Below, in pieces: positions 40,101 through 58,487 of a stretch of 64,000 nucleotides of DNA. The notes under the pieces are model-generated. The model saw only the letters and a program-made list of their open reading frames with translations. It had not been told where the DNA came from and ran no database searches. Within the stretch, counting starts at the first letter, position 1; each line of letters begins with the position of its first letter. The DNA is from Sphingomicrobium sp. (GTDB lineage: Bacteria > Pseudomonadota > Alphaproteobacteria > Sphingomonadales > Sphingomonadaceae): contig DATAPR010000055.1 of the NCBI GenBank assembly GCA_036265105.1, positions 42,229 through 106,228 on the forward strand. Reading direction: 5' to 3'. The position numbers were made by a program, and so were the translations under genes.

Positions 40101-43100
40101 CCAGGGCGGTGCCTTCGACGGCGAAGCCGCTTTCGCGATCTCGATCAACTCGACGACGGGCGTCGTGACGGTTGAGCAGTATCTCTCACTCGACCATCCC
40201 AACCCCAATGATCCCAACGACGCCGTTCAGATGCTGACCGGTACTGTTGGAGTGACAGTCACGGCGACAGACGGCGACGGCGACCATGTCACCTCGGGCG
40301 CGGTCGACGTTTCGCACGAGATCACGTTCCTGGATGATGGTCCATCGGTCAGTCCGGTCGTCAATTCCGACGCCACGGTGACTCTCGACGAGAGCGGTCT
40401 TGGAGCAGGCACAGCGACGATTGACACCGGCTCAATCGTCAAGGGCGATGATCCTGACGTGGCCGGTTCGGGAGCGATCAGCGCGGCGACTTCCGGATCC
40501 GCGATCGTCACGGCCAATGCGGCGTTCGGCGCCGACGGCCCGGCCGTCAGCGGCTCGCTCACTTACGCACTCTCAATCACCAGTGCGACCTCGGGTCTCG
40601 AAGTGACGGACGGAAGCGCGATCAGCCTCCAGATGGTCAACGGCGTCATTGTCGGCGTGGTCCAGGGCGGCGCCTTCAATGGCGAGGCGGCTTTTGCGAT
40701 CTCGATCAACTCGACGACGGGTGTGGTGACGGTTGAGCAGTACCTCTCGCTCGATCATCCCAACCCCAATGACCCCAACGACGCCGTTCAGATGCTGACC
40801 GGTACTGTTGGTGTGACCGTGACCGCGACGGACGGCGACGGCGACCATGTGACTTCTGGCGCGGTCGATGTGTCGCACGAAATCACGTTCCTGGACGATG
40901 GTCCTTCGGTCAATCCGGTCGTCAATTCTGACGCTTCGGTCACGCTCGACGAGAGTGGTCTCGGCGCTGGCGCAGCGACGATCAACACGGGTTCAATCGT
41001 CAAGGGCGATGATCCTGATGTGGCGGGTTCGGGCGCGATCAGCTCGGCGACTTCCGGAAGCGCGATCGTCACCCCCAATGCGGCGTTCGGTGCGGACGGC
41101 CCTGCGGTCAGCGGCTCGCTGACCTACGCCCTCAGCATCACGAACGCAGTTTCCGGTCTCGAGGTTACGGACGGCAGCGCGATCAACCTTCAAATGGTCA
41201 ACGGCGTCATCGTCGGCGTGGTCAGCGGCGGGGCCTTCAATGGTGAGGCGGCTTTCGCGATCTCGATCAACTCGACGACGGGTGTCGTGACCGTCGAGCA
41301 GTACCTCTCGCTCGATCATCCGAACCCCAACGACCCGAACGACGCAGTCCTGCTCGCTTCGGGATCGGTCGGAGTGACCGTGACCGCGACGGATGGCGAC
41401 GGCGACCATGTGACTTCGGGCGCAGTCGACGTATCCCACCAGATCACCTTCCTCGACGATGGTCCCTCGATCAGTCCAGTCGTCAATGCCGACGCAACGG
41501 TCACTCTCGACGAGAGCGGTCTTGGAGCAGGCGCGGCGACGATCAGCACCGGCTCGATCGTCAAGGGCGATGATCCAGATGTCGCCGGCTCAGGAGCGAT
41601 CAGCTCTGCGACGTCGGGTTCGGCAATTGTTAGCGCCCATGCGGCGTTCGGCGCCGATGGTCCGGCGGTCACCGGGTCGCTGACCTACGCACTTTCCATC
41701 ACGAACGCAGTTTCGGGTCTTGAAGTGACCGACGGAAGCGCGATCAACCTTCAGCTGGTCAACGGCGTGATCGTCGGCGTGGTCAGCGGCGGTGCGTTCA
41801 ACGGCGAGGCGGCCTTTGCCATCTCGATCAACTCGAGCACCGGCGTTGTGACGGTCGAGCAGTATCTCTCGCTCGACCATCCCAACACGAGCGATCCGAA
41901 CGACGCAGTCCTTCTCGCTTCGGGATCGGTCGGTGTGACCGTCACCGCGACGGACGGCGACGGGGATCATGTGACCTCTGGCGCGGTTGATGTGTCGCAC
42001 CAGATCACGTTCCTGGACGATGGTCCTTCGGTTAGCCCGGTCGTCAACGCCGACGCAACGGTCACGCTCGACGAGAGCGGCCTTGGCGCGGGCGCAGCGA
42101 CGATCAGCACGGGTTCAATCGTCAAGGGCGACGATCCTGACGTTGCAGGTTCTGGCGCGATCAGCTCTGCGAATTCGGGCTCGGCGATCGTTAGCGCCCA
42201 TGCGGCGTTCGGTGCGGATGGCCCCGCGGTCAGCGGCTCGCTGACCTATGCGCTCTCCATCACGAACGCAGTCTCCGGTCTTGAAGTGACTGATGGAAGC
42301 GCCATCAACCTCCAGATGGTCAACGGCGTCATCGTCGGCGTGGTGAGCGGCGGTGCCTTCAACGGTGAGGCGGCGTTTGCGATCTCGATCAACTCGACGA
42401 CTGGTGTCGTGACAGTCGAGCAGTATCTCTCGCTCGATCATCCCAACACGAGCGACCCGAACGACGCAGTCCTTCTCGCTTCGGGATCGGTCGGAGTGAC
42501 GGTCACTGCGACCGATGGCGATGGCGATCATGTGACCTCGGGCGCTGTCGACGTATCCCACCAAATCACCTTCCTGGACGACGGTCCCTCGGTCAGTCCA
42601 GTCCTCAATGCCACCGCTACGGTCTTGCTCGACGAGAGCGGCCTCGGGGCGGGCGCAGCGACGATCAACACGGGTTCGATCGTTAAGGGCGACGATCCAG
42701 ATGTTGCCGGCTCGGGCGCGATCAGCTCGGCGAATTCGGGCTCGGCGGTCGTTAGCGCCCATGCGGCGTTCGGTGCCGACGGCCCGGCGGTCACCGGCTC
42801 GCTGACCTATGCATTGAGTATCACGAACGCAGTCTCCGGTCTGATGGTGACCGACGGCAGCGCGATCAACCTCCAGATGGTGAATGGCGTGATCGTCGGC
42901 GTGGTGAGCGGCGGTGCGTTCAACGGCGAAGCGGCTTTTGCGATCTCGATCAATTCGAGCACCGGCGTTGTGACAGTCGAGCAGTACCTCTCGCTCGATC
43001 ATCCCAACACGAGCGACCCCAACGACGCAGTTCTGCTCGCTACGGGATCGGTCGGGGTGACCGTCACCGCGACGGACGGCGACGGGGATCATGTGACCTC

Positions 43101-46092
43101 AGGCGCAGTCGACGTGTCGCATCAGATCACGTTCCTCGACGACGGACCGCAAATGGATCCGGGTCTCAACGCCAGTGCGACCGTAACGCTCGACGAGAGC
43201 GGCCTTGGAGCGGGCGCTGCAACGATCAACACCGGCTCGATCGTCAAGGGCGACGATCCTGATGTGACGGGTTCCGGAGCAATCAGCAGCGCCAACTCGG
43301 GTAGCGCAGTCGTTACGGCCAATGCGGCGTTCGGTGCCGATGGTCCCGCGGTCACCGGATCGCTGACCTATGCCCTCTCCATCACCAATGCGACCTCCGG
43401 TCTTGAAGTGACCGATGGAAGCGCGATCAACCTTCAGATGGTGAACGGTGTCATCGTCGGGGTGGTCAGCGGCGGTGCCTTCAACGGTGAGGCGGCTTTC
43501 GCGATCTCGATCAATTCGAGCACCGGCGTTGTGACGGTCGAGCAATATCTCTCGCTCGACCATCCCAACACGAGCGATCCCAACGATGCCGTTCAGATGG
43601 CGCTGGGCTCGGTCGGAGTGACGGTAACGGCGACGGACGGCGACGGGGATCATGTGACTTCCGGGGCGATCGACGTTTCGCACCAGATCACGTTCCTCGA
43701 CGATGGCCCCTCGGTCAGTCCAGCTCTCAACGCCAGCGCGACCGTAGCGCTCGATGAGAGCGGTCTCGGCGCAGGCCCTGCAACGATCAACACCGGCTCA
43801 ATCGTCAAGGGCGATGATCCAGATGTTGCTGGATCAGGCGCGATCAGCTCGGCGATGTCGGGCTCGGCACTCGTCACCGCCAATGCGTTGTTCGGTGCTG
43901 ACGGTCCGGCGCTCAGCAATTCGCTGGCCTATGCGCTCTCCATCACCAACGCGACCTCGGGTCTCGAAGTGACGGACGGTCATGCGATCACCCTGCAGAT
44001 GGTGAATGGTGTGATTGTCGGCGTCGTCCAGGGCGGGGCGTTCAACGGCGAGGCGGCCTTTGCCATCTCGATCAACGCCGCGACCGGCGTCGTGACCGTC
44101 GAGCAGTATCTCTCACTCGATCATCCGAACACCAGCGATCCGAACGACATTGTCCAGCTCGCTTCGGGATCGATCGGGGTGACTATCACTGCGACGGATG
44201 GCGACGGCGATCATATCACTTCGGGCGCGGTCGACGTCTCGCACCAGATCAGCTTTGCTGACGATGGGCCGACGCTTGGCACCGTTCAGGACCAGGTCGT
44301 CTCGAACGATCCGACCCAGACTCCGGCAGTTGGCTCCCTGCATTTCGCGGCAGGTGCGGACGGCCCGGGAACGACGATGACGATCACTGCTGACACCACC
44401 GGAATTACCTCCGGCGGATTTGGCCTCGTCACTCACCAGGTCGGAAATGTTCTCACCGCCTACGAGGACGTAAACCACAACGGCGTCTACGATTCTGGCG
44501 ATACCACTGCGGTCTTCACAATCACGGTCGATCCAAGCGGCGGTACGTCGGGCACCTATACGTTCGACCTGCTCCAGGCGCTCGATCCGACCGTCACCCC
44601 GTTCAACATCGGTTCGGGCAGTTCGTTCGGCGCGGGCCCATCGCAGAGCGTGGTGGTCACGGATACGGCCAGCGGCACCAACCTGGTCTTCGTGACCGGG
44701 TGGAGCCCGACGGACACGAGCCACGAGTTTACGACGGGGGAAAACACCGCGTGGCTTGGCGGCGGCGATCCTTCGCTCAGCCAGACATCGAACGTCAACG
44801 GTTCGACGGCGGGTTGGGGACTTGCCAACAACAACTTCGACGCCGGCGAGTTCATGCGCTTCGACTTCGGAACGCTGGACGATTATGACGGCGGCGGACC
44901 CTATACGCCTCCGGGAACGCCGACCATCGCGGTCGTCGATTTCGCGACCTTCTCGTTCAAGAACTTCTCAACCGGCGATACGGTCGAGTTCGTCGCTCAC
45001 TATACGGACGGAAGCACGGCAGATTTCGTTCTCTCCGACGGATCGGCGAGCACGCTCACGATCAACGCCCCCGCCGGCCTGCACATTGCATGGATCGACG
45101 TTTACGAATCGGCGGGCAGCATCAAGCTGAACCTCGATCAGGTTGGCGTTGTCACATCGACGGTCAACGACACCATCAATGCGACGGTGCAGCTGACGGA
45201 CGGAGACGGCGATCCGACCACGACCGGAGGCTTCACGATCCAGGTTACGGATGGCGGCACGCCCGCTCAGCCCAACCTGCAAGTGCAGAACAATGTCGTC
45301 ACGACCAACTCGGTCGTCTCGACCACGAGCCTCGTTTCGAGCAACGACAATCAGACGCACGGCGACCACCGCTCATTCGGGGTCGGTCAGAATGCGGCAG
45401 TGATGGCGGCGCTCGCAGCGGCAGGTATCGAGGCCGAGCACGGCAAGCTCGACTTCCACGGGCCTGCTGGCGGGACCGGTCATTCGCAGACGATGACTCC
45501 GCTTGTGGCCGCTTCGGCCGGAGCGGCGAGCTTCAGCTCGGGTTACACTGCCTCTCCGACCCACATCGTGGAGACGACGAGCGGATCCACTCCAGTCGAG
45601 GGACACCAAGCCGCTGGTCGGTTCCATGAGATCCTCGAGCAGATGCATGGTCTTGGCCACGCCGACGCTCACACTCCGGTGCTGACGACGCTTCTCAATG
45701 GCTCCTCGCCGATATCCCATGGTTCGGTCGTCCATACAGGATCGATCATGGCCTCGGGTGTCGCAATGCCGTCGGCCCAGCAGCTGATTGCAGCGATGGG
45801 TGGACACGCACAGCCGCAGAACAGCGTTGCTGGAGTGGATCACAGCCAGGCGGTCAGCCAGGTTCTGGCGGATGCACTGCACGGCGGCGAAGGTCACGGG
45901 CCGAGCATCGACGGGCTTCTAAGTGGCCCGACGAGCCATGTGACGCACGACGTGATCGAGGCCCTGGCAAGCCATGCTGGAAGCGCTGTTCCATTCTCGA
46001 ACAGCAGCGTGCTCGCCGCTTTCCACGGCACGCATAACATGTTCTCCATGAACGGGATGGCGCACCACGACGCGGCACCGCATCACGGATGA
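37195..46092 (+). CDS. Giant T1SS-secreted LapA-like adhesin (2965 aa) with Ig-like/VCBS-like domains and DUF5801-like repeats
   Basis: Acidic Gly/Ser/Thr/Val-rich sequence; TDGDGD and F-x-DDGP motifs; retention-module-like region with PAAG; directly upstream of a T1SS. Confidence 0.88.
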   Translation: MRYDDASQPVSNGHSEPVARPDVDILPPGSFGPATGNAITGEGTNSGHAGADSVGASPAITQVQGAGGQTVVGNGNFQAPGQYGVLQMDAQGNFNYVRNPNTPDGVKDVFNYTVADASGGNSSTTLTIDIAQVAAAAAGQGVVALPAGVQLSDIHVNGHDLIINMPDGTQMVIPNGAVFVPEITIGDVQVPPTNLAALLIDSEPQPAAGSSPSSGGDWNDPIPPLDPGVPLGDLIPPTELTYTPPTFVEPAGFIHEPPTVVIETPDNPPPGVVDASEQVFEKGLPERDGGKPAGSGEIADGDPNNNSDPSETNTGTIVFTAQGGLQVISVDGVAITQVGQTIQGQYGTMTITGIDLTHDTITYSYTLADNTSGDNTADHFTVVVTDKTGDTATATLTVNIVDDVPTARDDTDSLDSNLTATGNVMTGVGTTSGAAGADTVGADNASLTSVSSNFTHASDATFDSSGNLIVHGEFGTLTIKADGTYSYTLDANSHGGGNDVFTYTITDGDGDTSSATLTIDVPLQNSPPTAESSTVNVSEEGLPGGNPDSTGTPDTTNSATGAGTINASDPDGDPLTIKLTAPTGTYTSHGQVVNWAVSSDGHTLVGYTGSDSTTNHVIEVTITDSGTYSVQLLQAFDDPNPNIEDSISFTVPVTVSDNHGASTGVSITVTVEDDSPVVSPSVNSDASATLDESGTGAGAATIDTGSIVKGDDPDVAGSGAISSATSGSAIVNANVSFGGDGPAASNSLTYALSITNAASGLEVTDGSAITLQMVNGVIVGVVQGGAFNGEAAFAISINSATGVVTVEQYLSLDHPNTSDPNDAVQMALGSVGVTVTATDYDGDHVTSGAVDVSHQITFLDDGPSINPVVNSDATVTLDESGLGAGAATIDTGSIVKGDDPDVAGSGAISSATSGTAVVTANAAFGADGPAVSGSLTYALSITSATSGLEVTDGSAITLQMVNGVIVGVVQGGAFDGEAAFAISINSTTGVVTVEQYLSLDHPNPNDPNDAVQMLTGTVGVTVTATDGDGDHVTSGAVDVSHEITFLDDGPSVSPVVNSDATVTLDESGLGAGTATIDTGSIVKGDDPDVAGSGAISAATSGSAIVTANAAFGADGPAVSGSLTYALSITSATSGLEVTDGSAISLQMVNGVIVGVVQGGAFNGEAAFAISINSTTGVVTVEQYLSLDHPNPNDPNDAVQMLTGTVGVTVTATDGDGDHVTSGAVDVSHEITFLDDGPSVNPVVNSDASVTLDESGLGAGAATINTGSIVKGDDPDVAGSGAISSATSGSAIVTPNAAFGADGPAVSGSLTYALSITNAVSGLEVTDGSAINLQMVNGVIVGVVSGGAFNGEAAFAISINSTTGVVTVEQYLSLDHPNPNDPNDAVLLASGSVGVTVTATDGDGDHVTSGAVDVSHQITFLDDGPSISPVVNADATVTLDESGLGAGAATISTGSIVKGDDPDVAGSGAISSATSGSAIVSAHAAFGADGPAVTGSLTYALSITNAVSGLEVTDGSAINLQLVNGVIVGVVSGGAFNGEAAFAISINSSTGVVTVEQYLSLDHPNTSDPNDAVLLASGSVGVTVTATDGDGDHVTSGAVDVSHQITFLDDGPSVSPVVNADATVTLDESGLGAGAATISTGSIVKGDDPDVAGSGAISSANSGSAIVSAHAAFGADGPAVSGSLTYALSITNAVSGLEVTDGSAINLQMVNGVIVGVVSGGAFNGEAAFAISINSTTGVVTVEQYLSLDHPNTSDPNDAVLLASGSVGVTVTATDGDGDHVTSGAVDVSHQITFLDDGPSVSPVLNATATVLLDESGLGAGAATINTGSIVKGDDPDVAGSGAISSANSGSAVVSAHAAFGADGPAVTGSLTYALSITNAVSGLMVTDGSAINLQMVNGVIVGVVSGGAFNGEAAFAISINSSTGVVTVEQYLSLDHPNTSDPNDAVLLATGSVGVTVTATDGDGDHVTSGAVDVSHQITFLDDGPQMDPGLNASATVTLDESGLGAGAATINTGSIVKGDDPDVTGSGAISSANSGSAVVTANAAFGADGPAVTGSLTYALSITNATSGLEVTDGSAINLQMVNGVIVGVVSGGAFNGEAAFAISINSSTGVVTVEQYLSLDHPNTSDPNDAVQMALGSVGVTVTATDGDGDHVTSGAIDVSHQITFLDDGPSVSPALNASATVALDESGLGAGPATINTGSIVKGDDPDVAGSGAISSAMSGSALVTANALFGADGPALSNSLAYALSITNATSGLEVTDGHAITLQMVNGVIVGVVQGGAFNGEAAFAISINAATGVVTVEQYLSLDHPNTSDPNDIVQLASGSIGVTITATDGDGDHITSGAVDVSHQISFADDGPTLGTVQDQVVSNDPTQTPAVGSLHFAAGADGPGTTMTITADTTGITSGGFGLVTHQVGNVLTAYEDVNHNGVYDSGDTTAVFTITVDPSGGTSGTYTFDLLQALDPTVTPFNIGSGSSFGAGPSQSVVVTDTASGTNLVFVTGWSPTDTSHEFTTGENTAWLGGGDPSLSQTSNVNGSTAGWGLANNNFDAGEFMRFDFGTLDDYDGGGPYTPPGTPTIAVVDFATFSFKNFSTGDTVEFVAHYTDGSTADFVLSDGSASTLTINAPAGLHIAWIDVYESAGSIKLNLDQVGVVTSTVNDTINATVQLTDGDGDPTTTGGFTIQVTDGGTPAQPNLQVQNNVVTTNSVVSTTSLVSSNDNQTHGDHRSFGVGQNAAVMAALAAAGIEAEHGKLDFHGPAGGTGHSQTMTPLVAASAGAASFSSGYTASPTHIVETTSGSTPVEGHQAAGRFHEILEQMHGLGHADAHTPVLTTLLNGSSPISHGSVVHTGSIMASGVAMPSAQQLIAAMGGHAQPQNSVAGVDHSQAVSQVLADALHGGEGHGPSIDGLLSGPTSHVTHDVIEALASHAGSAVPFSNSSVLAAFHGTHNMFSMNGMAHHDAAPHHG
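39211..44259 (+). repeat. Nine tandem 561-bp (187-aa) coding repeats
   Basis: DD(S/G)P codons at 39211, 39772, 40333, 40894, 41455, 42016, 42577, 43138, 43699 and 44260, an exact 561-bp period. Confidence 0.95.
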
Positions 46093-46165
46093 GGATTGGA
46101 GTGACACAATAACCCCGGCCGCCATGCGTAACTTTGGCGGCCGAGATGACCAACAGGGGGGATTT

Positions 46166-47620
46166 ATGTCTTACAAGTCTTGGATGCTTACCATTCCGGG
46201 GGCCTTGCTGGTCTCCACTTCTCCGGCGTGGGCGGTCGATCTACGTGACGCCGTCCAGTCCGCTCTCGCGACGAACCCTGAAATCCGCCAGGCCGTCTCG
46301 AACAGGGCAGCGACCGAAGAAGAGCTTCAGCAGGGCAAGGGCCTTTATTATCCGACCATCTCGGTCGAGGGCTCGGCCGGCGTTGAGGATCTCCATAATC
46401 CCACGAGGGAACAGCTCGGCATCGCAAACCACACGTTGTGGCCGATCGAGGGCGACCTGATCCTTGACGAACTGGTTTATGACAGCGGGGGCCGCGAGGC
46501 CGAAATCCGCCGCCAGGCCGCTCGTTCGGATTCGGCTGCGGCACGGGTTCAGGAGCGCTCCGAGTTCGTCGCTCAGAATACTGCTCGCACCTACATCGAT
46601 TATGTTCTCCAGCAGCGGCTCGTTGCCATCGCGCAGGACAACGTAACGTTCCACGAGAAGCTCGCCGGCGACCTTCGCGAAGGTGTCGCCAAGGGTTCGA
46701 TCAGCATTGCCGACCAGCAGCAGGCCGAAGAGCGGCTTCAGGCTGCTCGGGCCAAGGTGACTCAGGCCCAGGAAGACCTGGAGAGCGCTGGAATCACCTT
46801 CCGCACCTACACCGGAATTCCGATCGACACCGTGTCGCTTCCACCGGATCTCTCGCCCTGCATGCCGGCCACTCTCGAGGATGCCGAGGCAGCCGCCCGC
46901 AACGAAAATCCGCGGGTTCGCGAAGCGGAGGCCGACCTTGCAACGTCGCGCGAGGAAATTCGCGCCGCCAAGGCAGCGCTCGGTCCGAAGTTCAGCATCG
47001 AGGGCCGCGCTCGCGCAGGCCATGACATCGACGGGTTCGAGGGCCGCACGACCGACCTCCAGGCCCGCGGAGTTGTCCGCTGGACGCTGTACAATGGCGG
47101 AACCAAGGAAGCGAACGTCCGCGAGCAGCAGGAGCGCGCCAATGAAGTTCACGGGCGCCTGTTCCAGCAGACTCGGGCTGCCGAGGAAGACGTAAGGACG
47201 GCCTGGAGCCGACTTCAGAACCAGACGTCGCTGACGAGCGAGCTCGAGACTCAGGGCCGGATTTCCGACGACCTGCTTCTCTCCTACCGCGAGCAGTTCA
47301 ACATCGGGCGCCGTTCACTTCTCGACGTCCTCGATGCGCAGAACTCCCGCTATGTCGTGCAGCAGCAGGTGGAGACCGCGCGTCTCGCCAAGCTCTATGC
47401 GCAATATCAGGTCCTGGCTTCCGAGAACCGGCTGATCCAGTGCCTGGGGGTGCAGCCGGCGGCGGCTGCCCGGCAGACGGAGATGGTTCGCTATCACGTC
47501 AATCCGATCCCGCCCGCCGACCTTCAGGAAAACAGCATCCCGACGCCGGCTTTGGCGCCTGCGCCTCCGCCCCCTCCGGGCGAGGCTCCTCCGCCACCGC
47601 CGCCGCCTTCGGGCCGCTAA
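46166..47620 (+). CDS. TolC/LapE-family T1SS outer-membrane channel
   Basis: AGGGGG RBS; signal peptide; 'QFNIGRRSLLDVLDAQN'. Confidence 0.92.
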   Translation: MSYKSWMLTIPGALLVSTSPAWAVDLRDAVQSALATNPEIRQAVSNRAATEEELQQGKGLYYPTISVEGSAGVEDLHNPTREQLGIANHTLWPIEGDLILDELVYDSGGREAEIRRQAARSDSAAARVQERSEFVAQNTARTYIDYVLQQRLVAIAQDNVTFHEKLAGDLREGVAKGSISIADQQQAEERLQAARAKVTQAQEDLESAGITFRTYTGIPIDTVSLPPDLSPCMPATLEDAEAAARNENPRVREAEADLATSREEIRAAKAALGPKFSIEGRARAGHDIDGFEGRTTDLQARGVVRWTLYNGGTKEANVREQQERANEVHGRLFQQTRAAEEDVRTAWSRLQNQTSLTSELETQGRISDDLLLSYREQFNIGRRSLLDVLDAQNSRYVVQQQVETARLAKLYAQYQVLASENRLIQCLGVQPAAAARQTEMVRYHVNPIPPADLQENSIPTPALAPAPPPPPGEAPPPPPPPSGR

Positions 47621-47645
47621 AAGCTAAGAGAATCGAGGACGGGTA

Positions 47646-49844
47646 GTGAGTTTCATGCATTGGCTTGATGTAGAGCCGTCGCGCGAGATCGATCCCGTCC
47701 TCGACTGCCTGACCTTCCTGGCTCGGCAGGCGGACCGGCCGTCATCGCCGGTCCTTCTCAGAGCGGGTCTAGCGGTCTCGGCCGACGGGCGCTTGCCGTT
47801 CCACCAGGTCGAGCCCGCGCTCGAGCAGGTCGGAATGCGTGCGGATCCCATCACTCGTGGTCTCAAGGGGTGGCCGTCGGGCAAATGCCCGGCGATCCTC
47901 GAGCTCGAGGACGAGCGCGCGGCCGTACTTCTCGAGGTTCGCGATCGCGACGGCCTGATCTACGCGCCAGGCCTTTCCGAGCCGATGTGGGTGAGGCTTT
48001 CCGAGGTCCAGCCAGTCTATACAGGCCGCGCGGTCGTGGTCGAAACCGATCCGACTCGCGAACGCTCGAACGAGCGTCCTTGGGACGTCGCCAAACGCCG
48101 CCACTGGTTCTGGTCCGAAATCTACAAGGTTCGCCGCGAATTCTGGCCGGTTCTGTTGGCCGCTCTCATCGTCAACTTGCTCGCCTTCGCGATGCCGCTG
48201 TTCACGATGAACGTCTACGACCGCGTCATTCCGAACAAGGCGGCCGCAACGCTCTGGGTGCTCGCGGTCGGAGTTCTCCTTGCGCTCTCCTTCGACTTTA
48301 CCCTTCGAATCGCCCGTTCGCGGCTGATCGACGAGGTCGCCCGCAAGCTCGACGCAAAGCTTTCGCAGAAGCTGTTCGAGAAGGTCATGAACCTTCCGAT
48401 GTCGGACCGCCAGGGGAGCACAGGTGCGCTTGCCCGGCGGGTCTCCGACTATGAGATGGTGCGCGACTTCTTCGCGTCGACAACCGTCGTTCTCGCCGTC
48501 GACCTCACCTTCATGATCCTCTTCCTCGCGTTCATCACCTTTGTCGGCGGATGGCTCGTTCTCGTGCCTCTTACCGGCATCGTGGTTATGCTGATCGCGG
48601 GCCTCAGCCTTCAGCGGCAGATGGGCAAGGTCGCCCTCGACGCGCAGGCGGATTCGAGCCTTCAGCATTCGGTTCTCGTTGAAGCGATTTCTGGCGCCGA
48701 GACGCTGAAGTCGGCTCGCGCCGAAGGGCAGATGCTTGGACGCTGGCGCCGCTATTCATCGATGAGCGCCGCGACGAGCGAGCGGATGCGCAAGCTTTCC
48801 GCGGTCGCCGTCAACCTCGCGAGCATTTCTCAGCAGTCGATCAGCGTTGGTCTTCTCGTCGGGGGATTCTACCGCTTCCAGACCGGCGACATGTCGATGG
48901 GCGCGATCATCGCCATCATCATGATTTCGGGTCGCTCGCTCCAGCCCGTCGGGCAGCTCGCCTTCCTCGTCACGCGGGGCAAGCAGGCGTTCGCGACCTT
49001 GACCTCGCTCCAGCGGATGATGGAAGCCGACGACGAGCGCCAGGGAGCGATGCGCAGCATCGTTCCCGAGATCCGGGCCGGGCACATCGAGCTCAAGGAC
49101 CTCACGTTCCGCTATCCCGGCGCATCGCGCGACTCTCTTTCGGCCGTCAACCTCAAGATCGAACCGGGTGAGCGGATCGGCATCATCGGCCGCGTCGCTT
49201 CGGGCAAGTCGACTCTCGGCCGAGTGCTGTGCGGGCTTTATCCGCCAAGCGGCGGCGAGATGCTCATCGATGGTCTCGATAGCCGTCAATACCATCCCCA
49301 TCAGCTTCGCGAGGCGTTCCGCTTTGTCAGCCAGGATGCCGACGTCTTCAGCGGCACGGTTCGCGACAACCTCATGCTTGGCGCCGCGCAGGCGGACGAC
49401 CAGCAGCTGATCGACGCCGTGGTTCGCTCAGGGGCCGACATCTTCCTCTCCCGCGACGCGGCGGGCTTCGATTTGCCGGTCGGAGAGCGGGGTGGCCGTC
49501 TGTCGGGCGGTCAGCGTTCCTTGCTCGTCCTTGCCCGGGCGCTCGTCACTCCGTCGAAAATGCTGTTCCTCGATGAGCCGACCGGCTCGATGGACACGCA
49601 GACCGAGCTCTATTTCATCGAGCATCTGAAGACGGCGCTTGCGCCCGGCCAGTCGCTCGTCGTTGCGACTCACCGTCACAACATGCTCTCGATCCTCAAC
49701 CGCCTGCTCGTGATCGACAATGGCAGGATCATCGCCGACGGTCCGCGTGACGAGATCTTGAAGCACCTCACGACCGCGGCGCAGGCGCCCAAAGCGCCCG
49801 ACGAGCGGATCGCTGCGCAGGTGCAGAAAGTCGTGAAGTCGTGA
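47646..49844 (+). CDS. T1SS ABC transporter with C39-like domain (LapB-like)
   Basis: N-terminal CLD; 'MNVYDRVIPN'; Walker A 'GRVASGKS'; 'LSGGQ'; 'LDEPT'. Confidence 0.93.
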   Translation: MSFMHWLDVEPSREIDPVLDCLTFLARQADRPSSPVLLRAGLAVSADGRLPFHQVEPALEQVGMRADPITRGLKGWPSGKCPAILELEDERAAVLLEVRDRDGLIYAPGLSEPMWVRLSEVQPVYTGRAVVVETDPTRERSNERPWDVAKRRHWFWSEIYKVRREFWPVLLAALIVNLLAFAMPLFTMNVYDRVIPNKAAATLWVLAVGVLLALSFDFTLRIARSRLIDEVARKLDAKLSQKLFEKVMNLPMSDRQGSTGALARRVSDYEMVRDFFASTTVVLAVDLTFMILFLAFITFVGGWLVLVPLTGIVVMLIAGLSLQRQMGKVALDAQADSSLQHSVLVEAISGAETLKSARAEGQMLGRWRRYSSMSAATSERMRKLSAVAVNLASISQQSISVGLLVGGFYRFQTGDMSMGAIIAIIMISGRSLQPVGQLAFLVTRGKQAFATLTSLQRMMEADDERQGAMRSIVPEIRAGHIELKDLTFRYPGASRDSLSAVNLKIEPGERIGIIGRVASGKSTLGRVLCGLYPPSGGEMLIDGLDSRQYHPHQLREAFRFVSQDADVFSGTVRDNLMLGAAQADDQQLIDAVVRSGADIFLSRDAAGFDLPVGERGGRLSGGQRSLLVLARALVTPSKMLFLDEPTGSMDTQTELYFIEHLKTALAPGQSLVVATHRHNMLSILNRLLVIDNGRIIADGPRDEILKHLTTAAQAPKAPDERIAAQVQKVVKS

Positions 49845-50863
49845 AAATCGCGGCTCGCAAAGTCATTTCTGCACGTCTCGCGGCGAGCGCCGCCGCGCTC
49901 GTCGGAGTGGTTGCGGTTTCGGCCCTTCTTGTTAGCGCCCGCCAGCCCGCGAGCGCTGCGGTGACGGTGATGATTCCAAAGGCGAGGGCCGCGGCGCTCA
50001 TCCAGGCCACCAGCGGCGATTCGATGACGGACATGCGCGCTGTCGGTGATGAGGCCCGCCTCATCAACGCTGCGCTGCCCTTTGCCAACGGGCCGTTACA
50101 TTCGGCTCAGCGCTTCGTTCTTGCCGGAACCGATCTCGACCAGCAGCGGGCGCTCCTCTGTCTCACCCAGGCGGTCTATTACGAGGCCGGTTTCGAGCCG
50201 CTCGAAGGCCGCCGGGCCGTGGCGCAAGTGGTTCTCAACAGGCTTCGCCATCCGGCTTTCCCGAAATCCGTCTGCGGGGTGGTCTACGAGGGCGCGGGAA
50301 GCGGGACCTGCCAGTTCACATTCGTTTGCGACGGGGCGCTCTATCGCAAGCCCGCAATCGATGCCTGGCGCGAAGCCGAGCAGGTCGCCCGAGCCGCTCT
50401 CTCCGGCTATGTCGAAACCTCGGTTGGCGAAGCCACGCATTACCACGCCGACTATGTCGCGCCGCGCTGGGCGCCGCTGCTGGCGAAGGTCGCCACGATC
50501 GGACAGCATATTTTCTACCGCTGGCCCGGCGAATGGGGCCAGCCTGCGGCCTTCACCGGTCACTATATCGGCGAGCCGCGCGATCCTTTGGCGATGCGGC
50601 CACCGCCGCCGGCTCCAGGGACGCAGGCCAGTGATGGACCCGTAACGCTGGCGCAGGTCGATGCCGGGCCACCAGTCGCCCGAGCAGCCGACGATGTTGG
50701 AGGCCTGCTGGACACCTCCAAGGGCTGGACTCTCAATATTCCTAGTCCCGAAGATAGCGACAGCGCGGCATCGAAGATGATCGCCGTCCAGCAGGGATCC
50801 TCTCAAGCGCCGCGGGAAGTTGCCGCGGCTCAGCCTGTAGCCGCATCGACGAGCAGCAGGTAA
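49841..50863 (+). CDS. Cell-wall hydrolase (SleB/Hydrolase_2 family)
   Basis: 'CLTQAVYYEAGFE', 'VLNR', 'CGVVYEG', 'CQFTF', 'ATHYHADYVAPRW'. Confidence 0.9.
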   Translation: MKIAARKVISARLAASAAALVGVVAVSALLVSARQPASAAVTVMIPKARAAALIQATSGDSMTDMRAVGDEARLINAALPFANGPLHSAQRFVLAGTDLDQQRALLCLTQAVYYEAGFEPLEGRRAVAQVVLNRLRHPAFPKSVCGVVYEGAGSGTCQFTFVCDGALYRKPAIDAWREAEQVARAALSGYVETSVGEATHYHADYVAPRWAPLLAKVATIGQHIFYRWPGEWGQPAAFTGHYIGEPRDPLAMRPPPPAPGTQASDGPVTLAQVDAGPPVARAADDVGGLLDTSKGWTLNIPSPEDSDSAASKMIAVQQGSSQAPREVAAAQPVAASTSSR

Positions 50864-50889
50864 ACTTAGAATTCCGGAGCAAGCGTATC

Positions 50890-52173
50890 ATGGCTACCCT
50901 TCCATTCATCGGACCCGCAATCAGACACCGCAAGCCAATGACCGGCGCGCGGATGATCATCGTTGCGACGGCGGCTGCGTTCCTGCTCTTTCTTATCTGG
51001 TCGAGCCTCGCTCAGGTTGACGAAGTGACCCGCGGCGAGGGCAGGGTCATCCCGTCGAGCAAGCTTCAGATCATCACGGCGGGCGATACGGCGACGGTCA
51101 GCGAGATCCTCGTCCGATCGGGCCAGAGGGTTCACAAGGGCGAGCTTCTCGTTCGCCTCGACAATCCGGAGAGCGAATCGCAGCTGGGTCAGCTTCAGGC
51201 AGAGACGCAGTCGCTCCAGGCGCGCTCAGCCAGACTGACTGCCGAGGGAATGGGCGGAAGCGACGCGTGCCAGGGCCCCGACTGCGCCGGTGAAGCAGCC
51301 CTTCGGGCAGCCCGGCAGTCGGCGCTTCGAAGCAAGGTCGAGGCATCGCAAGCAACGGCCGAACAAGCTCGGCGCGATGGAGCGGAAGCCGCAGGCACGG
51401 TCAGCAGCCTCCAAAGCACGCTCGCGCTCGCTCAGCACCAGGTGCAGATGATGACGCCGCTCGCCGCGAAGAACATCGTCCCCCAGACCGACCTTATCGA
51501 GAAGCAGCGCGAAGTCGTCGACATCCAGGGACGCATAGCCGCCGCCCGCGAACAGCAGGGCAAGGCCGCCGCGGCTGTTCAGGAAGCTGAGGCACAGGCC
51601 TCGCAGGCGACGTTCGAGTTCAAGCAGCAGGCGCTCGACGAGCGAAGCCAGGTGAATGCCAAGATCGCGGTCAACGAGCAGTCGCTCCGCGGCGCCGAAG
51701 GCAAACTCAGTCGCACCGAGATCCGCTCGCCGGTCGACGGCGTCGTCAATGATGTCCAGGTGACGACCATCGGCTCCTACGTTCAGCCGGGCCAGAAGAT
51801 CATGGAAGTCGTGCCTCTGGGCGACAAGCTTCTCGTGGAAACCCGAGTGAAGCCGAGCGACATTGCTTTCATCAAGGTCGGCGACCGGGCGCTCGTGAAG
51901 GTGACCGCCTACGACTTCTCGATCTACGGCGGCCTGCAGGGCCGTGTCGTCCAGGTTTCCGCGGATTCAATCTACGACGACAAGGAGAAGGAAGCCTATT
52001 TCACGGTCGTCGTTCAAACGGACAAGAGCTATCTCATGTCCCTAGGCCGTCCGCTTCCGATCACTCCGGGAATGATGACCAGCACCCAGATCATCACCGG
52101 GCGGAAGAGCATTCTGACCTATCTCTTGAAGCCGGCATTGAAGGCGAACAGCGACGCGCTTCGCGAACGCTGA
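50890..52173 (+). CDS. HlyD-family T1SS membrane fusion protein (LapC-like)
   Basis: 'VDEVTRGEGRVIP', 'IRSPVDGVV', 'DIAFI...KVTAYD', 'PGM...I-x-TG-x-KSILTYLLKP'. Confidence 0.93.
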   Translation: MATLPFIGPAIRHRKPMTGARMIIVATAAAFLLFLIWSSLAQVDEVTRGEGRVIPSSKLQIITAGDTATVSEILVRSGQRVHKGELLVRLDNPESESQLGQLQAETQSLQARSARLTAEGMGGSDACQGPDCAGEAALRAARQSALRSKVEASQATAEQARRDGAEAAGTVSSLQSTLALAQHQVQMMTPLAAKNIVPQTDLIEKQREVVDIQGRIAAAREQQGKAAAAVQEAEAQASQATFEFKQQALDERSQVNAKIAVNEQSLRGAEGKLSRTEIRSPVDGVVNDVQVTTIGSYVQPGQKIMEVVPLGDKLLVETRVKPSDIAFIKVGDRALVKVTAYDFSIYGGLQGRVVQVSADSIYDDKEKEAYFTVVVQTDKSYLMSLGRPLPITPGMMTSTQIITGRKSILTYLLKPALKANSDALRER

Positions 52174-53039
52174 TCGTTCTCGGCAATCGCAACCGGAGCA
52201 ACCGGAGCCGTCTCCCGATGGATCCGGTATCCGTGAGTCCATTCGCCATATGACGCGAAGGTGAGGATGGGCCGGTAATCGTCGACGTTCCTTGAATCGA
52301 GCACTTCGTCGGTGCTGTCGTCGAGGACGTACATGTGACCCGCGGCGCGTGCGACGAGCACCGCATGGTCGGCGCGCCGATCCAGATCATGAACGATCGT
52401 CAGATAAAGATCGTGCTGAGGAAAACCGGCGGCGCGGAGCAGCTGCATCTTGGCGATCGCATAATCCTCGCAATCGCCAAGGCCGCTGCTCAGGGTCTCG
52501 TTGGCCGATGACCAGACATCAGGACGACCCCAATGCTTCTGATCGTCCTCATACGTAACCCGGTGATTGACGAAATTGTTCACCCGCTCGAGCATCTCGA
52601 CCGCAGCAAATCCCTTGAGGGCGGCAGCAAAGCGCGCGGGCGATCCCGTGACTTGAGCATGTTCGACCGAATGCCATTTTGCATCGAGCGGCGTATGGCC
52701 CACCCTCAGAGCGACCGAGCCGAAGACGTCGGGGCGTCCGGTCAAGGCACCATCGTCTTGTGCCGGCACGTGTACGATCGCCTGCACGAGCGGCGGCGCC
52801 GAATAGGATGCGGACGCAAAGGATGCAGATGTGACGGCTGCGAACGCCGGCGCTGCATGCTGTTCGGAAAGGATAGCCTCCAGCGCGCTCGGCGCGCCGA
52901 GGATCGACTCGCTTTTCGACCATGCGAGAGATCCGGCGGTGCCGGGCAGCGACTGCGCCGAAGCGCTTCCGGGGAAAGCGAATGCGCAAAGTGCGGCCGA
53001 AAGCCCGATCGAAGCGCGAGTGATGCTGCGGATCGCCAT
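52119..53039 (-). CDS. lapG: Transglutaminase-like periplasmic cysteine protease (BTLCP, LapG-like)
   Basis: Signal peptide; 'VNNFVN', 'GDCEDYAIAK' (Cys), 'HAVL' (His), 'VLD' (Asp). Confidence 0.88.
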   Translation of the reverse strand: MAIRSITRASIGLSAALCAFAFPGSASAQSLPGTAGSLAWSKSESILGAPSALEAILSEQHAAPAFAAVTSASFASASYSAPPLVQAIVHVPAQDDGALTGRPDVFGSVALRVGHTPLDAKWHSVEHAQVTGSPARFAAALKGFAAVEMLERVNNFVNHRVTYEDDQKHWGRPDVWSSANETLSSGLGDCEDYAIAKMQLLRAAGFPQHDLYLTIVHDLDRRADHAVLVARAAGHMYVLDDSTDEVLDSRNVDDYRPILTFASYGEWTHGYRIHRETAPVAPVAIAENDQRSRSASLFAFNAGFKR

Positions 53040-53225
53040 GCATCGGCATCTCGCAAACTAAGTCGAAGATTAGCTTAGGGTCTGTGGTTACCGACAAATT
53101 TACTATCCATTCCGGAGCGTTCGTCATGCGCCGGATCAACCTCTGATTCGCTGCAGAGGTTCTTGCGGGATGGCAGGGCGCTCATTGACCCTGGTTTGAT
53201 CCAGCAAGATGAAAGGAACGTGGAA

Positions 53226-54302
53226 ATGGGAGATGAGCCTTTCGAGCTAAGGCTCGGCCACACGGGTAGCGAACCGACATATCTCGATGCGGTATTGCGC
53301 GTCGCACGACGTGCGAAAATGCCAAAAAAGGGTCGGAGGAGATTTTCCGGGAGCCGTCTCGGACGAGGCGCCGTGGCAGCACGAATGCTTGCTTTGCGCG
53401 GCCGTCACGCCGCCATCCGGACCCGCCGTGCGCATGTCCGCATGACGATGGTGAGGGTTGGACGATTGGGAAGGTTGCTCGCGCACCTTACATACCTCCA
53501 GCGCAACGGTGTCGCTCGCGACGGCGGCCGTGGGCAGCTTTATTCCGCTTCGCAGGACCATGCCGATGGACGTCAGTTCGCTGAACGCTGTCTTGGCGAT
53601 CGTCATCAGTTCAGATTCGCCGTCTCAGCAGAAGACGCAGACGAATATGAGGACCTTCAACCACTCATCCGTCGGTTCATGGGGCGTATGGAAGAGGATC
53701 TGGGAACGGGCCTCGATTGGGTCGCCGTAAACCACCTCGACACGTTCAGTCCGCATACCCACGTCGTTCTTCGCGGCAAGGATGACCTTGGCGGCAATTT
53801 GATCATCTCGCCTCAATACATCATGCGTGGCATGAGAGAGCGTGTCGCCGAGATCGCGAACCTGGATCTTGGACCGCGGATCGATCTGGAAAGCAAGCGG
53901 ACCCTGTTGCTTGAGGTCAGTGCGGAGCGGTTGACTTCGATCGATCTCAAGCTTCTGCGCGACATGGACAGCGAGCGGGTGGTGTCCGCTTTTTCAGCAA
54001 GCGACATGTTCGATCATTCGATACGGACCGGACGCCTGCACAAGCTCGAGAGATTTGGCTTAGCGGAGAATCTCGAGCGTGGGAGCTGGCGGCTCAGCGA
54101 GGAGCTCGAACGCACTCTGCACGCAATCGGGAAGCGTGCGGAGATGTTCAAAACACCGGGGCATGCGATTCCGATTGGGTATGATCGCGATTTTGGGACC
54201 GAGCCATCAGGGCCAGCGATGGGCGGCGAAGAGTCAGGACCGGTCGGACGACCCGCAAACATCGCTTGGTCCCTCGCTCACCGGCATGAAATTGAGCGCT
54301 AG
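53226..54302 (+). CDS. VirD2-like MOBP relaxase of Tn4371-type ICEs, apparently lacking the C-terminal DUF3363 domain
   Basis: 'HLTYLQRNG' (catalytic Tyr), 'HQFRFAVSAED', 'LDWVAVNH...PHTHVVLRG' (HUH); similarity ends after 'LERTLHAIGKRAEMFKT'. Confidence 0.8.
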   Translation: MGDEPFELRLGHTGSEPTYLDAVLRVARRAKMPKKGRRRFSGSRLGRGAVAARMLALRGRHAAIRTRRAHVRMTMVRVGRLGRLLAHLTYLQRNGVARDGGRGQLYSASQDHADGRQFAERCLGDRHQFRFAVSAEDADEYEDLQPLIRRFMGRMEEDLGTGLDWVAVNHLDTFSPHTHVVLRGKDDLGGNLIISPQYIMRGMRERVAEIANLDLGPRIDLESKRTLLLEVSAERLTSIDLKLLRDMDSERVVSAFSASDMFDHSIRTGRLHKLERFGLAENLERGSWRLSEELERTLHAIGKRAEMFKTPGHAIPIGYDRDFGTEPSGPAMGGEESGPVGRPANIAWSLAHRHEIER

Positions 54303-54461
54303 TAGACGGCTGCCGACACAATCCACCCTCCATTGAGGCGCCATAACATCTTCAGATTCGTCGGACGGCTGCTCGTTGCGTCCGGAAGGTACTTCACCCG
54401 ACTCGCGGCAGTCTTCGATCCCTAGCTGCGTCGTCGGCTCATTCCGGCGTGGAGCTTTCGG

Positions 54462-56483
54462 ATGACGCCCACCAAGCTGTTGATCGGCCAGATTCTGATC
54501 GTGTTCGCGATCGTCGTGCTTGGACTGTGGGCCGCGACGCAATTGGCCGCATCGATGCTCGCGTACCAGGCTGCGCTTGGTCCCTATTGGTTCCAGTTAG
54601 GGGAGTTGCGAATCTACCGTCCATGGGCGTTGTTTCCCTGGTGGTTCCATTTTGACGCTTACGCACGGAGCGTATTCGACAAGGCCGGGGCCCTCGCCGG
54701 AGCAAGCGGACTTCTCGGCTGCGCGGCCGCAATCGCTGGTTCGCTGTGGCGCGCGCGGCAATCGGGCGCGGTCACGACTTATGGCTCGGCAAGATGGGCG
54801 AATGAACACGAAGTGCAGGCGGCCGGCTTGTTCGGGGATGCCGGCGTCTTCATCGGATCACTCGATGGATCCTACCTTCGCCATAACGGGCCGGAGCATG
54901 TCATGGCGATCGCGCCAACCCGGAGTGGAAAGGGCGTCGGACTCGTAGTGCCGACGCTTCTTAGCTGGACAGGGTCGGCCGTAATTCATGACATCAAGGG
55001 CGAGAATTGGGCGCTGACCGCCGGCTGGCGCTCGCGTTTCTCGCACTGCCTTCTGTTCAATCCAACGGATGCGAGGTCCGCCCATTACAACCCGCTTCTC
55101 GAAGTGCGCCGCGGCCCCGAGGAAGTCCGTGACGTCCAGAATATCGCAGACATCCTCGTCGATCCGGAAGGGGCTCTCGAGCGGCGCAATCATTGGGAAA
55201 AGACGTCGCATGGGCTCCTGGTCGGAGCGATCCTACACGTCCTGTACGCCGATGAGGAGAAGAGCCTGGCGCGCGTCGCGACGTTCTTGAGCGACCCGAC
55301 GCGAAGCTTCGCGGCGACGCTCCAGGCGATGATGACCACCAATCACTTGGGCACGAAGCAAGCTCCACTTGTTCACCCTGTCGTAGCGTCTGCCGCTCGC
55401 GAACTTCTCAACAAGTCCGGCAACGAGCGATCGGGCGTACTTTCGACCGCAATGTCTTTCTTGGGCCTCTACCGGGATCCGACGATCGCGACCGTGACTC
55501 GCGACTGCGATTGGAGGATTGACGATTTGGTTGGTGCGGATCGGCCGGTCTCGCTCTACCTCGTCATCCCGCCTTCCGACATTTCGCGCACCAAGCCGCT
55601 GGTGCGGCTCCTCCTCAACCAGATAGGCCGTCGCCTCACCGAGCGCCTGCAGACTGCTGGGGAAGAGTTGCAGCCGCGTCTGCTGATGATGCTTGACGAA
55701 TTTCCAGCACTCGGCCGGCTGGATTTCTTCGAGACGGCACTCGCCTTCATGGCCGGCTATGGAATTCGCGCCTTTCTCATTGCGCAATCCCTTAATCAGA
55801 TCGCCAGGGCCTACGGCGAGAACAACTCGATCCTGGACAATTGCCATGTCAGGATCGCTTTCGCGACCAACGACGAGCGAACCGCGCGACGCATCTCGGA
55901 TGCTTTGGGCACCGGGACCGAGTTGCATTCGATGCGCAACTACGCCGGACACCGCCTGGCACCATGGCTCGCACACATAATGGTCAGCCGCCAGGAGACA
56001 GCAAGGGCCCTCTTAACTCCTGGCGAGATCATGCAGCTGCCTCCGGGCGAGGAACTCGTGCTGCTCTCCGGAATGCCGCCGATCCGCGCAAAGAAGCTGC
56101 GCTTCTTCGAGGATGGACGATTCGTCGCTCGAGTTTGTCCGCCGCCAATGCTTGCCGAGGGGAATTATGCGGACCGACCGCCAAAACGTCCCCATGATTG
56201 GTCGGCATGCCGCGCCGAATCCATCGTCGTGGATGCGGCGCTGGAAGATCTCCACGGCGAAGGAAGCCTGCAGCAGGATCACCGTCTGCGAAAAAATGCC
56301 GGTCAGGATCTTCCGTTGGTTGATCCGTACGCCTCTGACCCTCTGGGACTCGGCGCGGACGACGACGATTGCATCGTCGAGCCAGCTTCATTCGAGCGCA
56401 AGCCCGGACTTGCGCCTGTCATCACTGCTGACGGCATCAACCAGGGATCGGATCGCGGCAGCGACCTGATGCCGAGCTTTTAG
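54462..56483 (+). CDS. traG: Type IV coupling protein TraG/VirD4
   Basis: 'MTPTKLLIGQ' N-terminus; Walker A 'APTRSGKG'; 'DIKGEN'; 'MLDEFPALG'. Confidence 0.95.
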   Translation: MTPTKLLIGQILIVFAIVVLGLWAATQLAASMLAYQAALGPYWFQLGELRIYRPWALFPWWFHFDAYARSVFDKAGALAGASGLLGCAAAIAGSLWRARQSGAVTTYGSARWANEHEVQAAGLFGDAGVFIGSLDGSYLRHNGPEHVMAIAPTRSGKGVGLVVPTLLSWTGSAVIHDIKGENWALTAGWRSRFSHCLLFNPTDARSAHYNPLLEVRRGPEEVRDVQNIADILVDPEGALERRNHWEKTSHGLLVGAILHVLYADEEKSLARVATFLSDPTRSFAATLQAMMTTNHLGTKQAPLVHPVVASAARELLNKSGNERSGVLSTAMSFLGLYRDPTIATVTRDCDWRIDDLVGADRPVSLYLVIPPSDISRTKPLVRLLLNQIGRRLTERLQTAGEELQPRLLMMLDEFPALGRLDFFETALAFMAGYGIRAFLIAQSLNQIARAYGENNSILDNCHVRIAFATNDERTARRISDALGTGTELHSMRNYAGHRLAPWLAHIMVSRQETARALLTPGEIMQLPPGEELVLLSGMPPIRAKKLRFFEDGRFVARVCPPPMLAEGNYADRPPKRPHDWSACRAESIVVDAALEDLHGEGSLQQDHRLRKNAGQDLPLVDPYASDPLGLGADDDDCIVEPASFERKPGLAPVITADGINQGSDRGSDLMPSF

Positions 56484-56495
56484 AAAGGAGCGACC

Positions 56496-58218: not shown

Positions 58219-58487
58219 GCGACGGGTATCTGCATCCCGAAGGCTTCGAGGTGCCCGTCCACCGGGCCCTGGTCGAGCCAATGCTCCTGGGCGGAGCGCC
58301 TCGCTCAATCGCAATCCTCAACGGAACTGTCTCGGCGGCTCTCGGTCTCGGGCTCCAGCAGTGGATTGCCGGCCTGCTGCTTTGGGCCCTCGGCCACTCA
58401 TTCGCGGTGTTTGCCGCCAAGCGCGATCCGGATTTCGCGGCGGTGATGCTCCGGCACCTCAGGCAACGGGGATATTTCGAATGCTGA
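58215..58487 (+). CDS. trbD: TrbD/VirB3
   Basis: GTG overlaps the trbC stop; 'GFEVPVHRALVEPMLLGGAPR...KRDPDF'. Confidence 0.9.
   Translation: MSDGYLHPEGFEVPVHRALVEPMLLGGAPRSIAILNGTVSAALGLGLQQWIAGLLLWALGHSFAVFAAKRDPDFAAVMLRHLRQRGYFEC

Follow-up and report, generated by a model that had tools for sequence, protein, structure and literature searches.

Lap-type adhesin release is the textbook example of inside-out signalling by cyclic di-GMP (c-di-GMP), and to our knowledge the published surveys have been restricted to genomes that encode both lapD and lapG. A locus within 64,000 nucleotides of a soil sphingomonad of the Alphaproteobacteria, Sphingomicrobium sp. (assembly GCA_036265105.1, contig DATAPR010000055.1, positions 42,229 to 106,228 of the forward strand; this whole stretch is referred to here as the window, and all coordinates without a locus name are those of the window), raises the question of how a giant adhesin might be released where the gene for the putative release protease has no receptor gene beside it. 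The locus encodes the adhesin, a type I secretion system and, on the opposite strand, a cysteine protease of the BTLCP family. Neither this locus nor any of ~90 related ones encodes a LapD-type receptor in cis. We consider it probable that the adhesin is released by a Lap-like cleavage mechanism, and we lean, with less assurance, towards the view that this cleavage goes together with receptor-independent control. The control of release in this organism is most likely transcriptional.

The protease, the adhesin and a predicted cleavage site

The protease gene (52119..53039, minus strand) encodes 306 amino acids and is convergent on the gene for the periplasmic adaptor of the secretion system. 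Its product matches PF06035 (BTLCP / Peptidase_C93) with 77.7 bits (E 1e-21) against a gathering cut-off of 27, and thus belongs to this family. The catalytic triad consists of C190 (52470-52472), H225 (52365-52367) and D240 (52320-52322), none of which varies among 26 homologues. The GDCED calcium motif is identical to that of LapG, with D189 and D192 invariant and E191 nearly so in the same set. When solved structures were searched with phmmer, the closest were LapG of Pseudomonas fluorescens (4u65_E, E 3e-14) and LapG of Legionella pneumophila (E 7e-12); the segment GDCEDYAI and the His and Asp positions of the protease align with LapG. An AlphaFold2 model based on the 26 homologues places residues ~105-262 with confidence and leaves residues 1-103 and 269-306 disordered. 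The top Foldseek match of this model is also LapG, with a root mean square deviation of 1.9 Å over 132 columns and 32% identity, and the LapG-fold core corresponds to residues ~105-265. From its basic n-region, hydrophobic core and ASA|QS end, we assigned the N-terminus by eye as a signal peptide (residues 1-28, A28 and Q29 being invariant), and the protease is accordingly predicted to be exported to the periplasm. The family is abundant in soil metagenomes, and its named matches come from Sphingomicrobium and Sphingomonas.

The candidate substrate is a giant type I secreted adhesin of 2965 amino acids (37195..46092, plus strand) that carries DUF5801/T1SS-143 repeats (nine matches to Pfam DUF5801, E 3e-266; twelve to NCBIfam T1SS_rpt_143). 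Alignment of the N-termini of 120 homologues, together with the sequence pattern, delimits an extra VCBS/Ig-like domain at residues 1-130 (37195..37584), which is present in most of the homologues but not in all. It precedes a retention-module-like domain at residues ~140-200 (37612..37794), the most conserved N-terminal block in the alignment, with the consensus LPAGVxLSDIxVxGxDLVIxMPDGTQMVIPxGAVFVPxxxIGDVxVPxxNLAALLI. AlphaFold2 models this domain as a small beta-rich fold of six strands plus a helix, at moderate confidence (predicted local distance difference test, pLDDT, 65-79). The conserved context that follows the block is EPQ-PAAG-xxx-SSGGNF, in which P206-A-A-G209 (37810..37821) is the predicted BTLCP cleavage site, given its conserved position in a linker that appears disordered (pLDDT <50). 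PAAG occurs in 99 of the 119 homologues in which it was counted, and near variants are PASG, TTAG, TGAG, PAVG and PAAN. It fits the published LapG cleavage motif [T/A/P]AA[G/V], and the SSGG downstream of it parallels the poly-Gly linker of LapA (10.1101/198937). A second candidate, the poly-Ala AAAG at residue 136 (stretch 133-138), was rejected as it is not conserved in the alignment.

Downstream of the adhesin gene and on the same strand lie the genes of the secretion system. They encode a TolC-family outer-membrane channel (OEP; 46124..47620; PF02321, E 1e-36; TIGR01844, 208 bits), an LssB/LapB-type ATP-binding cassette (ABC) permease/ATPase with an N-terminal C39-like domain (47646..49844; TIGR03375, 759.5 bits against a cut-off of 693, residues 16-710), a membrane-anchored SleB-like cell-wall hydrolase (Hydrolase_2; 49841..50863; PF07486, E 2e-27), whose gene shares its first 4 bp with the end of the ABC gene, and a HlyD-family periplasmic adaptor (membrane fusion protein, MFP; 50890..52173; TIGR01843, 348 bits against a cut-off of 209). 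Open reading frames and family matches agree with the initial annotation of the window, which had listed adhesin, TolC, ABC and MFP genes and a convergent LapG-like protease with an intact triad. That list had overlooked the Hydrolase_2 gene, which lies between those for the ABC protein and the MFP, and the interval given for the system (46166-53039) leaves out the adhesin gene.

Relatives keep the gene order adhesin-OEP-ABC-Hydrolase_2-MFP and have the BTLCP gene facing the MFP gene in convergent orientation. Our synteny survey drew on species-representative genomes, the window's own genome not being among those returned. A BTLCP gene was found beside MFP-Hydrolase_2-ABC-OEP in ~25 loci of the Sphingomonadales, including representatives of Sphingomonas, Sphingomicrobium, Rhizorhapis, Sphingobium, Sphingopyxis, Erythrobacter, Croceicoccus and Alteraurantiacibacter, and beside MFP-ABC-OEP without the hydrolase in Mesorhizobium, Devosia, Nitratireductor, Sinorhizobium, Neorhizobium and Bradyrhizobium. 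The Hydrolase_2 gene thus occupies the same position in the sphingomonad loci and is absent from the rhizobial versions; its product may make room in the peptidoglycan for a secretion system in which a folded plug is retained. The recurrent pairing of protease and pump across Sphingomonadales and Rhizobiales, together with the conserved PAAG after the retention-module-like domain, is our main argument that the adhesin is the substrate of the protease, and it strengthens the earlier proposal of a Lap-like release system.

The same evidence bears on a different reading, in which the BTLCP acts on some other envelope target, for example capsule or polysaccharide export as in the case of HvyA of Caulobacter crescentus, and its adjacency to secretion genes is incidental. 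HvyA does provide a precedent for other roles of alphaproteobacterial BTLCPs, the protease described here is not a LapG equivalog (see below), and the first 23 kb of the window contain glycosyltransferases and methyltransferases. Adjacency to type I secretion genes has, however, been preserved in two bacterial orders despite rearranged surroundings, and the adjacent adhesin bears a conserved canonical cleavage motif. We therefore regard an unrelated envelope target as quite improbable and retain cleavage of the adhesin as the preferred reading.

Search for a c-di-GMP receptor

The statement of the initial annotation that no GGDEF/EAL receptor lies within the 64 kb was borne out by three approaches. 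Pfam scans of the main open reading frames of the window detected no GGDEF, EAL, HD-GYP, PilZ or dCache domain; what they returned were glycosyltransferases, methyltransferases, an M23 peptidase, and Tad and Trb proteins. A six-frame motif search of the window likewise gave no GGDEF or EAL signature. The third approach employed a lapG-lapD pair from a Salinivibrio plasmid as a positive control, its LapD being verified by Pfam as LapD_MoxY_N, HAMP, GGDEF and EAL. With this LapD as the query, a tblastn search (E ≤ 10) of the window and 94 loci recovered only the query itself and one EAL protein, from a Rickettsiales metagenome-assembled genome (MAG). As the latter was detected at 25% identity, the search is sensitive enough for such domains.

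Beyond the window, no LapD-like sequence was found within 10 kb of the protease in ~90 related alphaproteobacterial BTLCP loci. A scan of 80 loci for GGDEF and DDFGTG motifs gave isolated GGDEF-pattern matches in four, none of them in a GGDEF/EAL protein, and no DDFGTG. The gene in the Rickettsiales MAG (L071:4766-5488) is the sole EAL-domain gene within 10 kb among the ~90 loci, and may represent a receptor-linked variant. A receptor of the DvhD type was also sought, and neither in the window nor in the related loci L001-L012 do the neighbours include a member of an HD, HD-GYP or dCache family. In other sphingomonads the neighbours upstream of the protease are housekeeping genes, encoding alpha/beta hydrolases, lysyl-tRNA synthetase, a GyrB/ParE homologue and a HAD hydrolase.

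These results have to be set against the view that the protease belongs to a receptor-gated system of the Lap or Dvh kind, in which the gene for a LapD-like (LapD_MoxY_N-HAMP-GGDEF-EAL) or DvhD-like (dCache-PAS-HD-GYP) membrane protein is unlinked, and this protein would, at high c-di-GMP, restrain the protease by sequestration or inhibition. In favour of this view, the catalytic core and calcium site of the protease are LapG-like, receptors other than LapD are known (PMC13090378), and our search was confined to the window and ±10 kb of ~90 loci. On the other hand, the known systems encode the receptor beside the protease gene, only one of the ~90 alphaproteobacterial BTLCP loci (L071) has an EAL protein within ±10 kb, and what sister lineages conserve next to the protease gene is a catalytically dead BTLCP and a lipoprotein, not a receptor. 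On balance we judge an unlinked receptor, the strongest of the alternatives, to be somewhat unlikely, and control without a receptor remains the reading that we favour.

Lost upstream genes and the control of the protease

The nearest relatives that lack the integrative and conjugative element (ICE) found next to the protease gene in the window (L001-L006, L011, L012, L014, L015 and L017) differ upstream of this gene. In these loci the active protease is encoded by the third gene of a co-directional trio, preceded by genes for a BTLCP paralogue of ~235 amino acids and for a DUF4142 protein with a lipoprotein signal (L002:8570-9879, L011:3287-4687 and L014:8573-9912). The paralogue is without the catalytic Cys and His (GAGDAKNRAIV; GGPLTVL), Cys being replaced by Ala, Met, Ser, Thr, Gly or Val and His by Leu, Ile, Met or Gln. 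None of its 120 best database homologues has the Cys or the His, and the family is 63-89% identical. Judged from these sequences, the dead BTLCP paralogue is a conserved pseudo-protease. A tRNA-Gln(CTG) gene adjoins the trio (L002:8336-8409; L014:8348-8421; L017:3962-4035; L001:6897-6970); it stands directly upstream of it in L002 and L014, and DNA of differing amounts is inserted between the tRNA gene and the dead paralogue in L017 and L001. This variable DNA suggests that the tRNA-Gln gene is an integration hotspot.

In the window and in L007-L010, its closest kin, neither the dead paralogue nor the DUF4142 gene is left, and genes for an RlxS relaxase, TraG and Trb proteins abut the protease gene. 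In the window this ICE remnant begins with a truncated RlxS of 379 amino acids and an IncP-type TraG (1089 bits), which occupy 53163..56483 (plus strand) and are followed by Trb genes. RlxS matches positions 2-316 of the 654 of profile NF041267, and it measures 578-579 amino acids at full length in L009 and L010. The remnant as a whole extends from 53163 to 64000 and also encodes TrbB, TrbE, TrbL and a VirB8-like protein; on the side that faces the protease gene, no rdfS, traF or integrase is present in the window. Alignment of the DNA revealed that the switch from homology with the relatives to ICE sequence occurs at an identical junction in four independent assemblies. The simplest history is that an ICE integrated at the tRNA-Gln gene and that one deletion then took the rdfS-traF side of the element together with the dead paralogue and the DUF4142 gene. 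The locus had initially been described as self-contained; this state is secondary and derived, as the sister lineages have the dead BTLCP and DUF4142 genes upstream.

The position of the remnant might also suggest that the protease gene is cargo of the conjugative element, since 123 bp separate the protease gene from the start of the relaxase gene, beyond which lie those for TraG and Trb proteins. This interpretation is refuted by synteny, and we give it next to no credence. ICE-free relatives show the same arrangement of protease and adaptor genes between the chromosomal housekeeping flanks Ppx, FtsJ, tRNA-Gln and RNase E, and homology with these relatives continues for ~95 bp ahead of the start codon, as far as the junction. 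The recurrent pairing of BTLCP and secretion genes described above likewise implies that the protease is not part of the neighbouring element.

The ~95 bp before the start codon of the protease gene can be aligned between ICE-adjacent loci (the window, L007, L009 and L010) and loci that retain the upstream genes (L011, L014 and L017), and probably represent a conserved promoter and regulatory region (53040..53135, minus strand). This region contains an inverted repeat, CTAAG-N11-CTTAG, at 53058-53078 and a direct repeat, GTAAA-N7-(G/C)TAAC, which has a variable spacer and whose copy in the window, GTAAA-N7-GTAAC, is located at 53087-53103. Each of the two motifs is unique in the window, where 0.13 and 0.05 matches were expected by chance. 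Transcriptional control, one of the options suggested at the outset, therefore gains support from a region with two repeat motifs that outlasted the loss of everything upstream of it. A CtrA box was considered, in view of the fit of TAAA-N7-GTAAC to seven of the nine consensus positions of TTAA-N7-TTAAC, and was set aside as a resemblance only. Within the ICE lineage the ratio of non-synonymous to synonymous substitution rates (dN/dS) of the protease is 0.10-0.15 at dS 0.4-0.7, the same as elsewhere, which indicates that the protease is still functional without its former cis neighbours and has been under purifying selection since the upstream genes were lost.

Two further modes of control had been suggested, namely an antisense effect of the convergent overlap and an action of the N-terminal extension of the protease. 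The overlap with the 3' end of the MFP gene is exactly 55 bp (52119-52173), as first reported, and places the last 18 codons of the adaptor, which ends in ...YLLKPALKANSDALRER, inside the protease gene. It is common to close relatives, but missing in the more distant sphingomonads L021, L025 and L047. The invariant C-terminal tail of the protease, QRSRSASLFAFNAGFKR, was examined as a functional motif and rejected: the tail (QRSRSAS...) is antisense to the conserved ...SDALRER stop region of the adaptor, with its HlyD-type ...LRER end, so that its conservation is imposed by the opposite strand and needs no function of its own. For both reasons we attach little weight to control by antisense overlap.

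The Ala/Ser-rich N-terminal extension proved to be real. The signal peptide is followed by ~70 Ala/Ser/Pro-rich residues (linker, residues 29-~100), which AlphaFold2 predicts to be disordered, and within them lies a conserved linear motif at residues 41-60, WSKSESILGAPSALEAILSEQ (52860..52919, minus strand; consensus sK(S/T)xAILGGxPSALxxIxxQQ). This motif is kept in Sphingomonas, Sphingomicrobium, Rhizorhapis, Erythrobacter, Sphingopyxis and Alteraurantiacibacter, whereas the remainder of the linker is variable. Long linkers likewise occur in those rhizobial BTLCPs that are linked to type I secretion, but they contain other motifs and not that of the sphingomonads. It is possible that the motif, which is found across the order, is a docking element that aids control. 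Autoinhibition by the extension found no support in the AlphaFold2 model, in which residues 1-103 have pLDDT <50 and do not dock onto the core, although this is a weak test. Some type I secretion-linked BTLCPs carry a lipobox instead of a plain signal peptide, for example those of Bradyrhizobium (L046:9680-10663) and Sphingobium (L026:2527-3561). By analogy, these would be tethered to the membrane via the long linker, much like DvhG of Desulfovibrio vulgaris.

In the mechanism that we propose from homology and synteny, the LssB-type ABC protein, the HlyD adaptor and TolC would export the 2965-residue adhesin with its C-terminus first, and the Ig-like and retention-module-like domains at its N-terminus would stay in the periplasm and hold it in TolC. 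The exported, calcium-dependent BTLCP would then cut the disordered linker at P206-A|A-G209 and so free the adhesin. The amount of protease, set at the level of transcription, would decide whether release takes place; the linker motif may serve for docking, and a c-di-GMP receptor would not form part of the module.

Several observations count against this mechanism. Cleavage of the adhesin by the protease is itself a prediction from homology and synteny. Against the LapG equivalog model NF045674 the protease scores 82.8 bits, where the cut-off is 320, and it covers only positions 61-189 of the 221 in the profile; the label LapG-like thus holds for its fold, triad and calcium motif, but not by the equivalog model. 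The protease therefore has the fold and chemistry of LapG without being its orthologue. For the retention-module-like domain, whose model is of only moderate confidence, no structural match reached E<0.2, and a search of PDB sequences was also empty; this conserved block of ~60 residues is a putative retention module. The adhesin contains no RTX nonapeptides, neither the published RTX pattern nor GGxGxD being matched, although some of its homologues carry HemolysinCabind. LapA-like adhesins have been defined by a length of >1000 amino acids, an N-terminal di-alanine motif, C-terminal RTX motifs and a folded retention module (10.1101/198937), of which the adhesin has the length (2965 amino acids) and the di-alanine (PAAG at residue 206) and lacks the RTX motifs. 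With regard to transcription, the conserved upstream region has no sigma-70 consensus promoter, a scan of 51900-53400 for sigma-70 promoters and terminators was empty, and none of the upstream repeats is an exact match to a known operator. A search for transcripts across the convergent overlap recovered the sequence only from DNA metagenomes of soil. Finally, a relocated copy of the dead paralogue may be present elsewhere in the genome, as may the unlinked receptor discussed above, whether of the LapD, the DvhD or another type.

A broader interpretation would be that sphingomonads run a c-di-GMP-independent Lap switch, in which ancestrally the dead LapG paralogue and the DUF4142 lipoprotein govern the active protease, and that the lineage of the window is a natural double knockout that relies on transcriptional control alone. 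We consider this unlikely, if conceivable. The dead paralogue may, in the place of LapD, act as a decoy that shields PAAG or as a partner that holds the protease.

Neighbouring genes and relation to known systems

Directly upstream of the adhesin gene and on the same strand, the window contains a complete Tad/Flp pilus locus (23629-36627) that encodes CpaB, a secretin, TadG/E, the CpaF ATPase, TadB/C, TPR proteins and a prepilin peptidase. Two adhesion devices, the pilus and the giant adhesin, are thus encoded side by side, and the first 23 kb of the window contain glycosyltransferase and methyltransferase genes. An AT-rich region upstream of the adhesin gene carries a 12-base direct repeat, GACCAGAATCGG, at 36758-36769 and 36988-36999. 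Sites resembling TTAA-N7-TTAA, with one mismatch each, are found twice upstream of the adhesin gene (36783-36970) and twice upstream of the Tad locus (22885-22923), which is not above chance (4 against 2.4 expected). The pattern CCRGAATSGR is shared by the regions upstream of the adhesin and protease genes, but it was picked post hoc and has 6 matches against 2.3 expected, and we make no claim for it. The C-terminus of the adhesin (44900-46092) comprises ~300 residues rich in His, Ala, Gly and Ser, which is unusual for the signal region of a type I secretion substrate. A plasmid origin of the locus was rejected, as megablast against plasmids gave no meaningful match.

Comparison with the Lap system of P. 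fluorescens (LapA, LapEBC, LapG and LapD; PMC3032545; 10.1101/198937) brings out both common and distinct features. In both, a type I system of the LapB/LssB type exports a giant adhesin, in which a [T/A/P]AA[G/V] site and a Gly/Ser linker come after a conserved module at the N-terminus. Both also have an exported protease of the BTLCP fold with a Cys-His-Asp triad and GDCED. In contrast, the locus described here has no lapD beside the protease gene, and its protease is only ~32% identical to LapG in the core and scores below the equivalog cut-off. The protease has a disordered linker of ~70 residues with a motif of its own, the adhesin is without RTX repeats, an additional Ig-like domain precedes its retention-module-like domain, and a cell-wall hydrolase gene is located inside the secretion operon.

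A parallel for the linker is provided by DvhG of D. vulgaris Hildenborough, a BTLCP with a long disordered N-terminal linker for which an unrelated receptor replaces LapD (PMC13090378). The DvhA/DvhG/DvhD system resembles the present one in that a Lap-like logic is built from divergent parts and LapD is dispensable. DvhG is anchored by a transmembrane helix, however, and has the HD-GYP/dCache receptor DvhD in cis, whereas the protease described here has a cleavable-looking signal peptide and no such receptor gene nearby. BTLCPs are widespread in the Alphaproteobacteria, where they occur near envelope transport systems, and one of them, HvyA of C. crescentus, is controlled purely through its abundance (PMC4241560). 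HvyA is likewise a periplasmic BTLCP with a signal peptide and triad and no LapD partner, its own control being exerted by transcription and protein abundance; unlike the protease of the window, it belongs to a capsule export locus, blocks capsulation, and has neither a known adhesin substrate nor type I secretion neighbours. In the literature we found no description that combines a type I secreted PAAG adhesin and a BTLCP without a receptor in cis, a cell-wall hydrolase in the secretion operon, the linker motif, and an ancestral pseudo-protease with a lipoprotein.

The module of adhesin, pump and protease without a neighbouring receptor gene is spread through soil Alphaproteobacteria. Of the leads that emerged, the conserved dead LapG paralogue is the most interesting, and it sits in relatives and not in the window itself. 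Should transcription or a pseudo-protease govern release, these abundant bacteria of the soil and rhizosphere would attach according to a different logic, and the dead paralogue and the linker motif would then be new regulators of periplasmic proteolysis.

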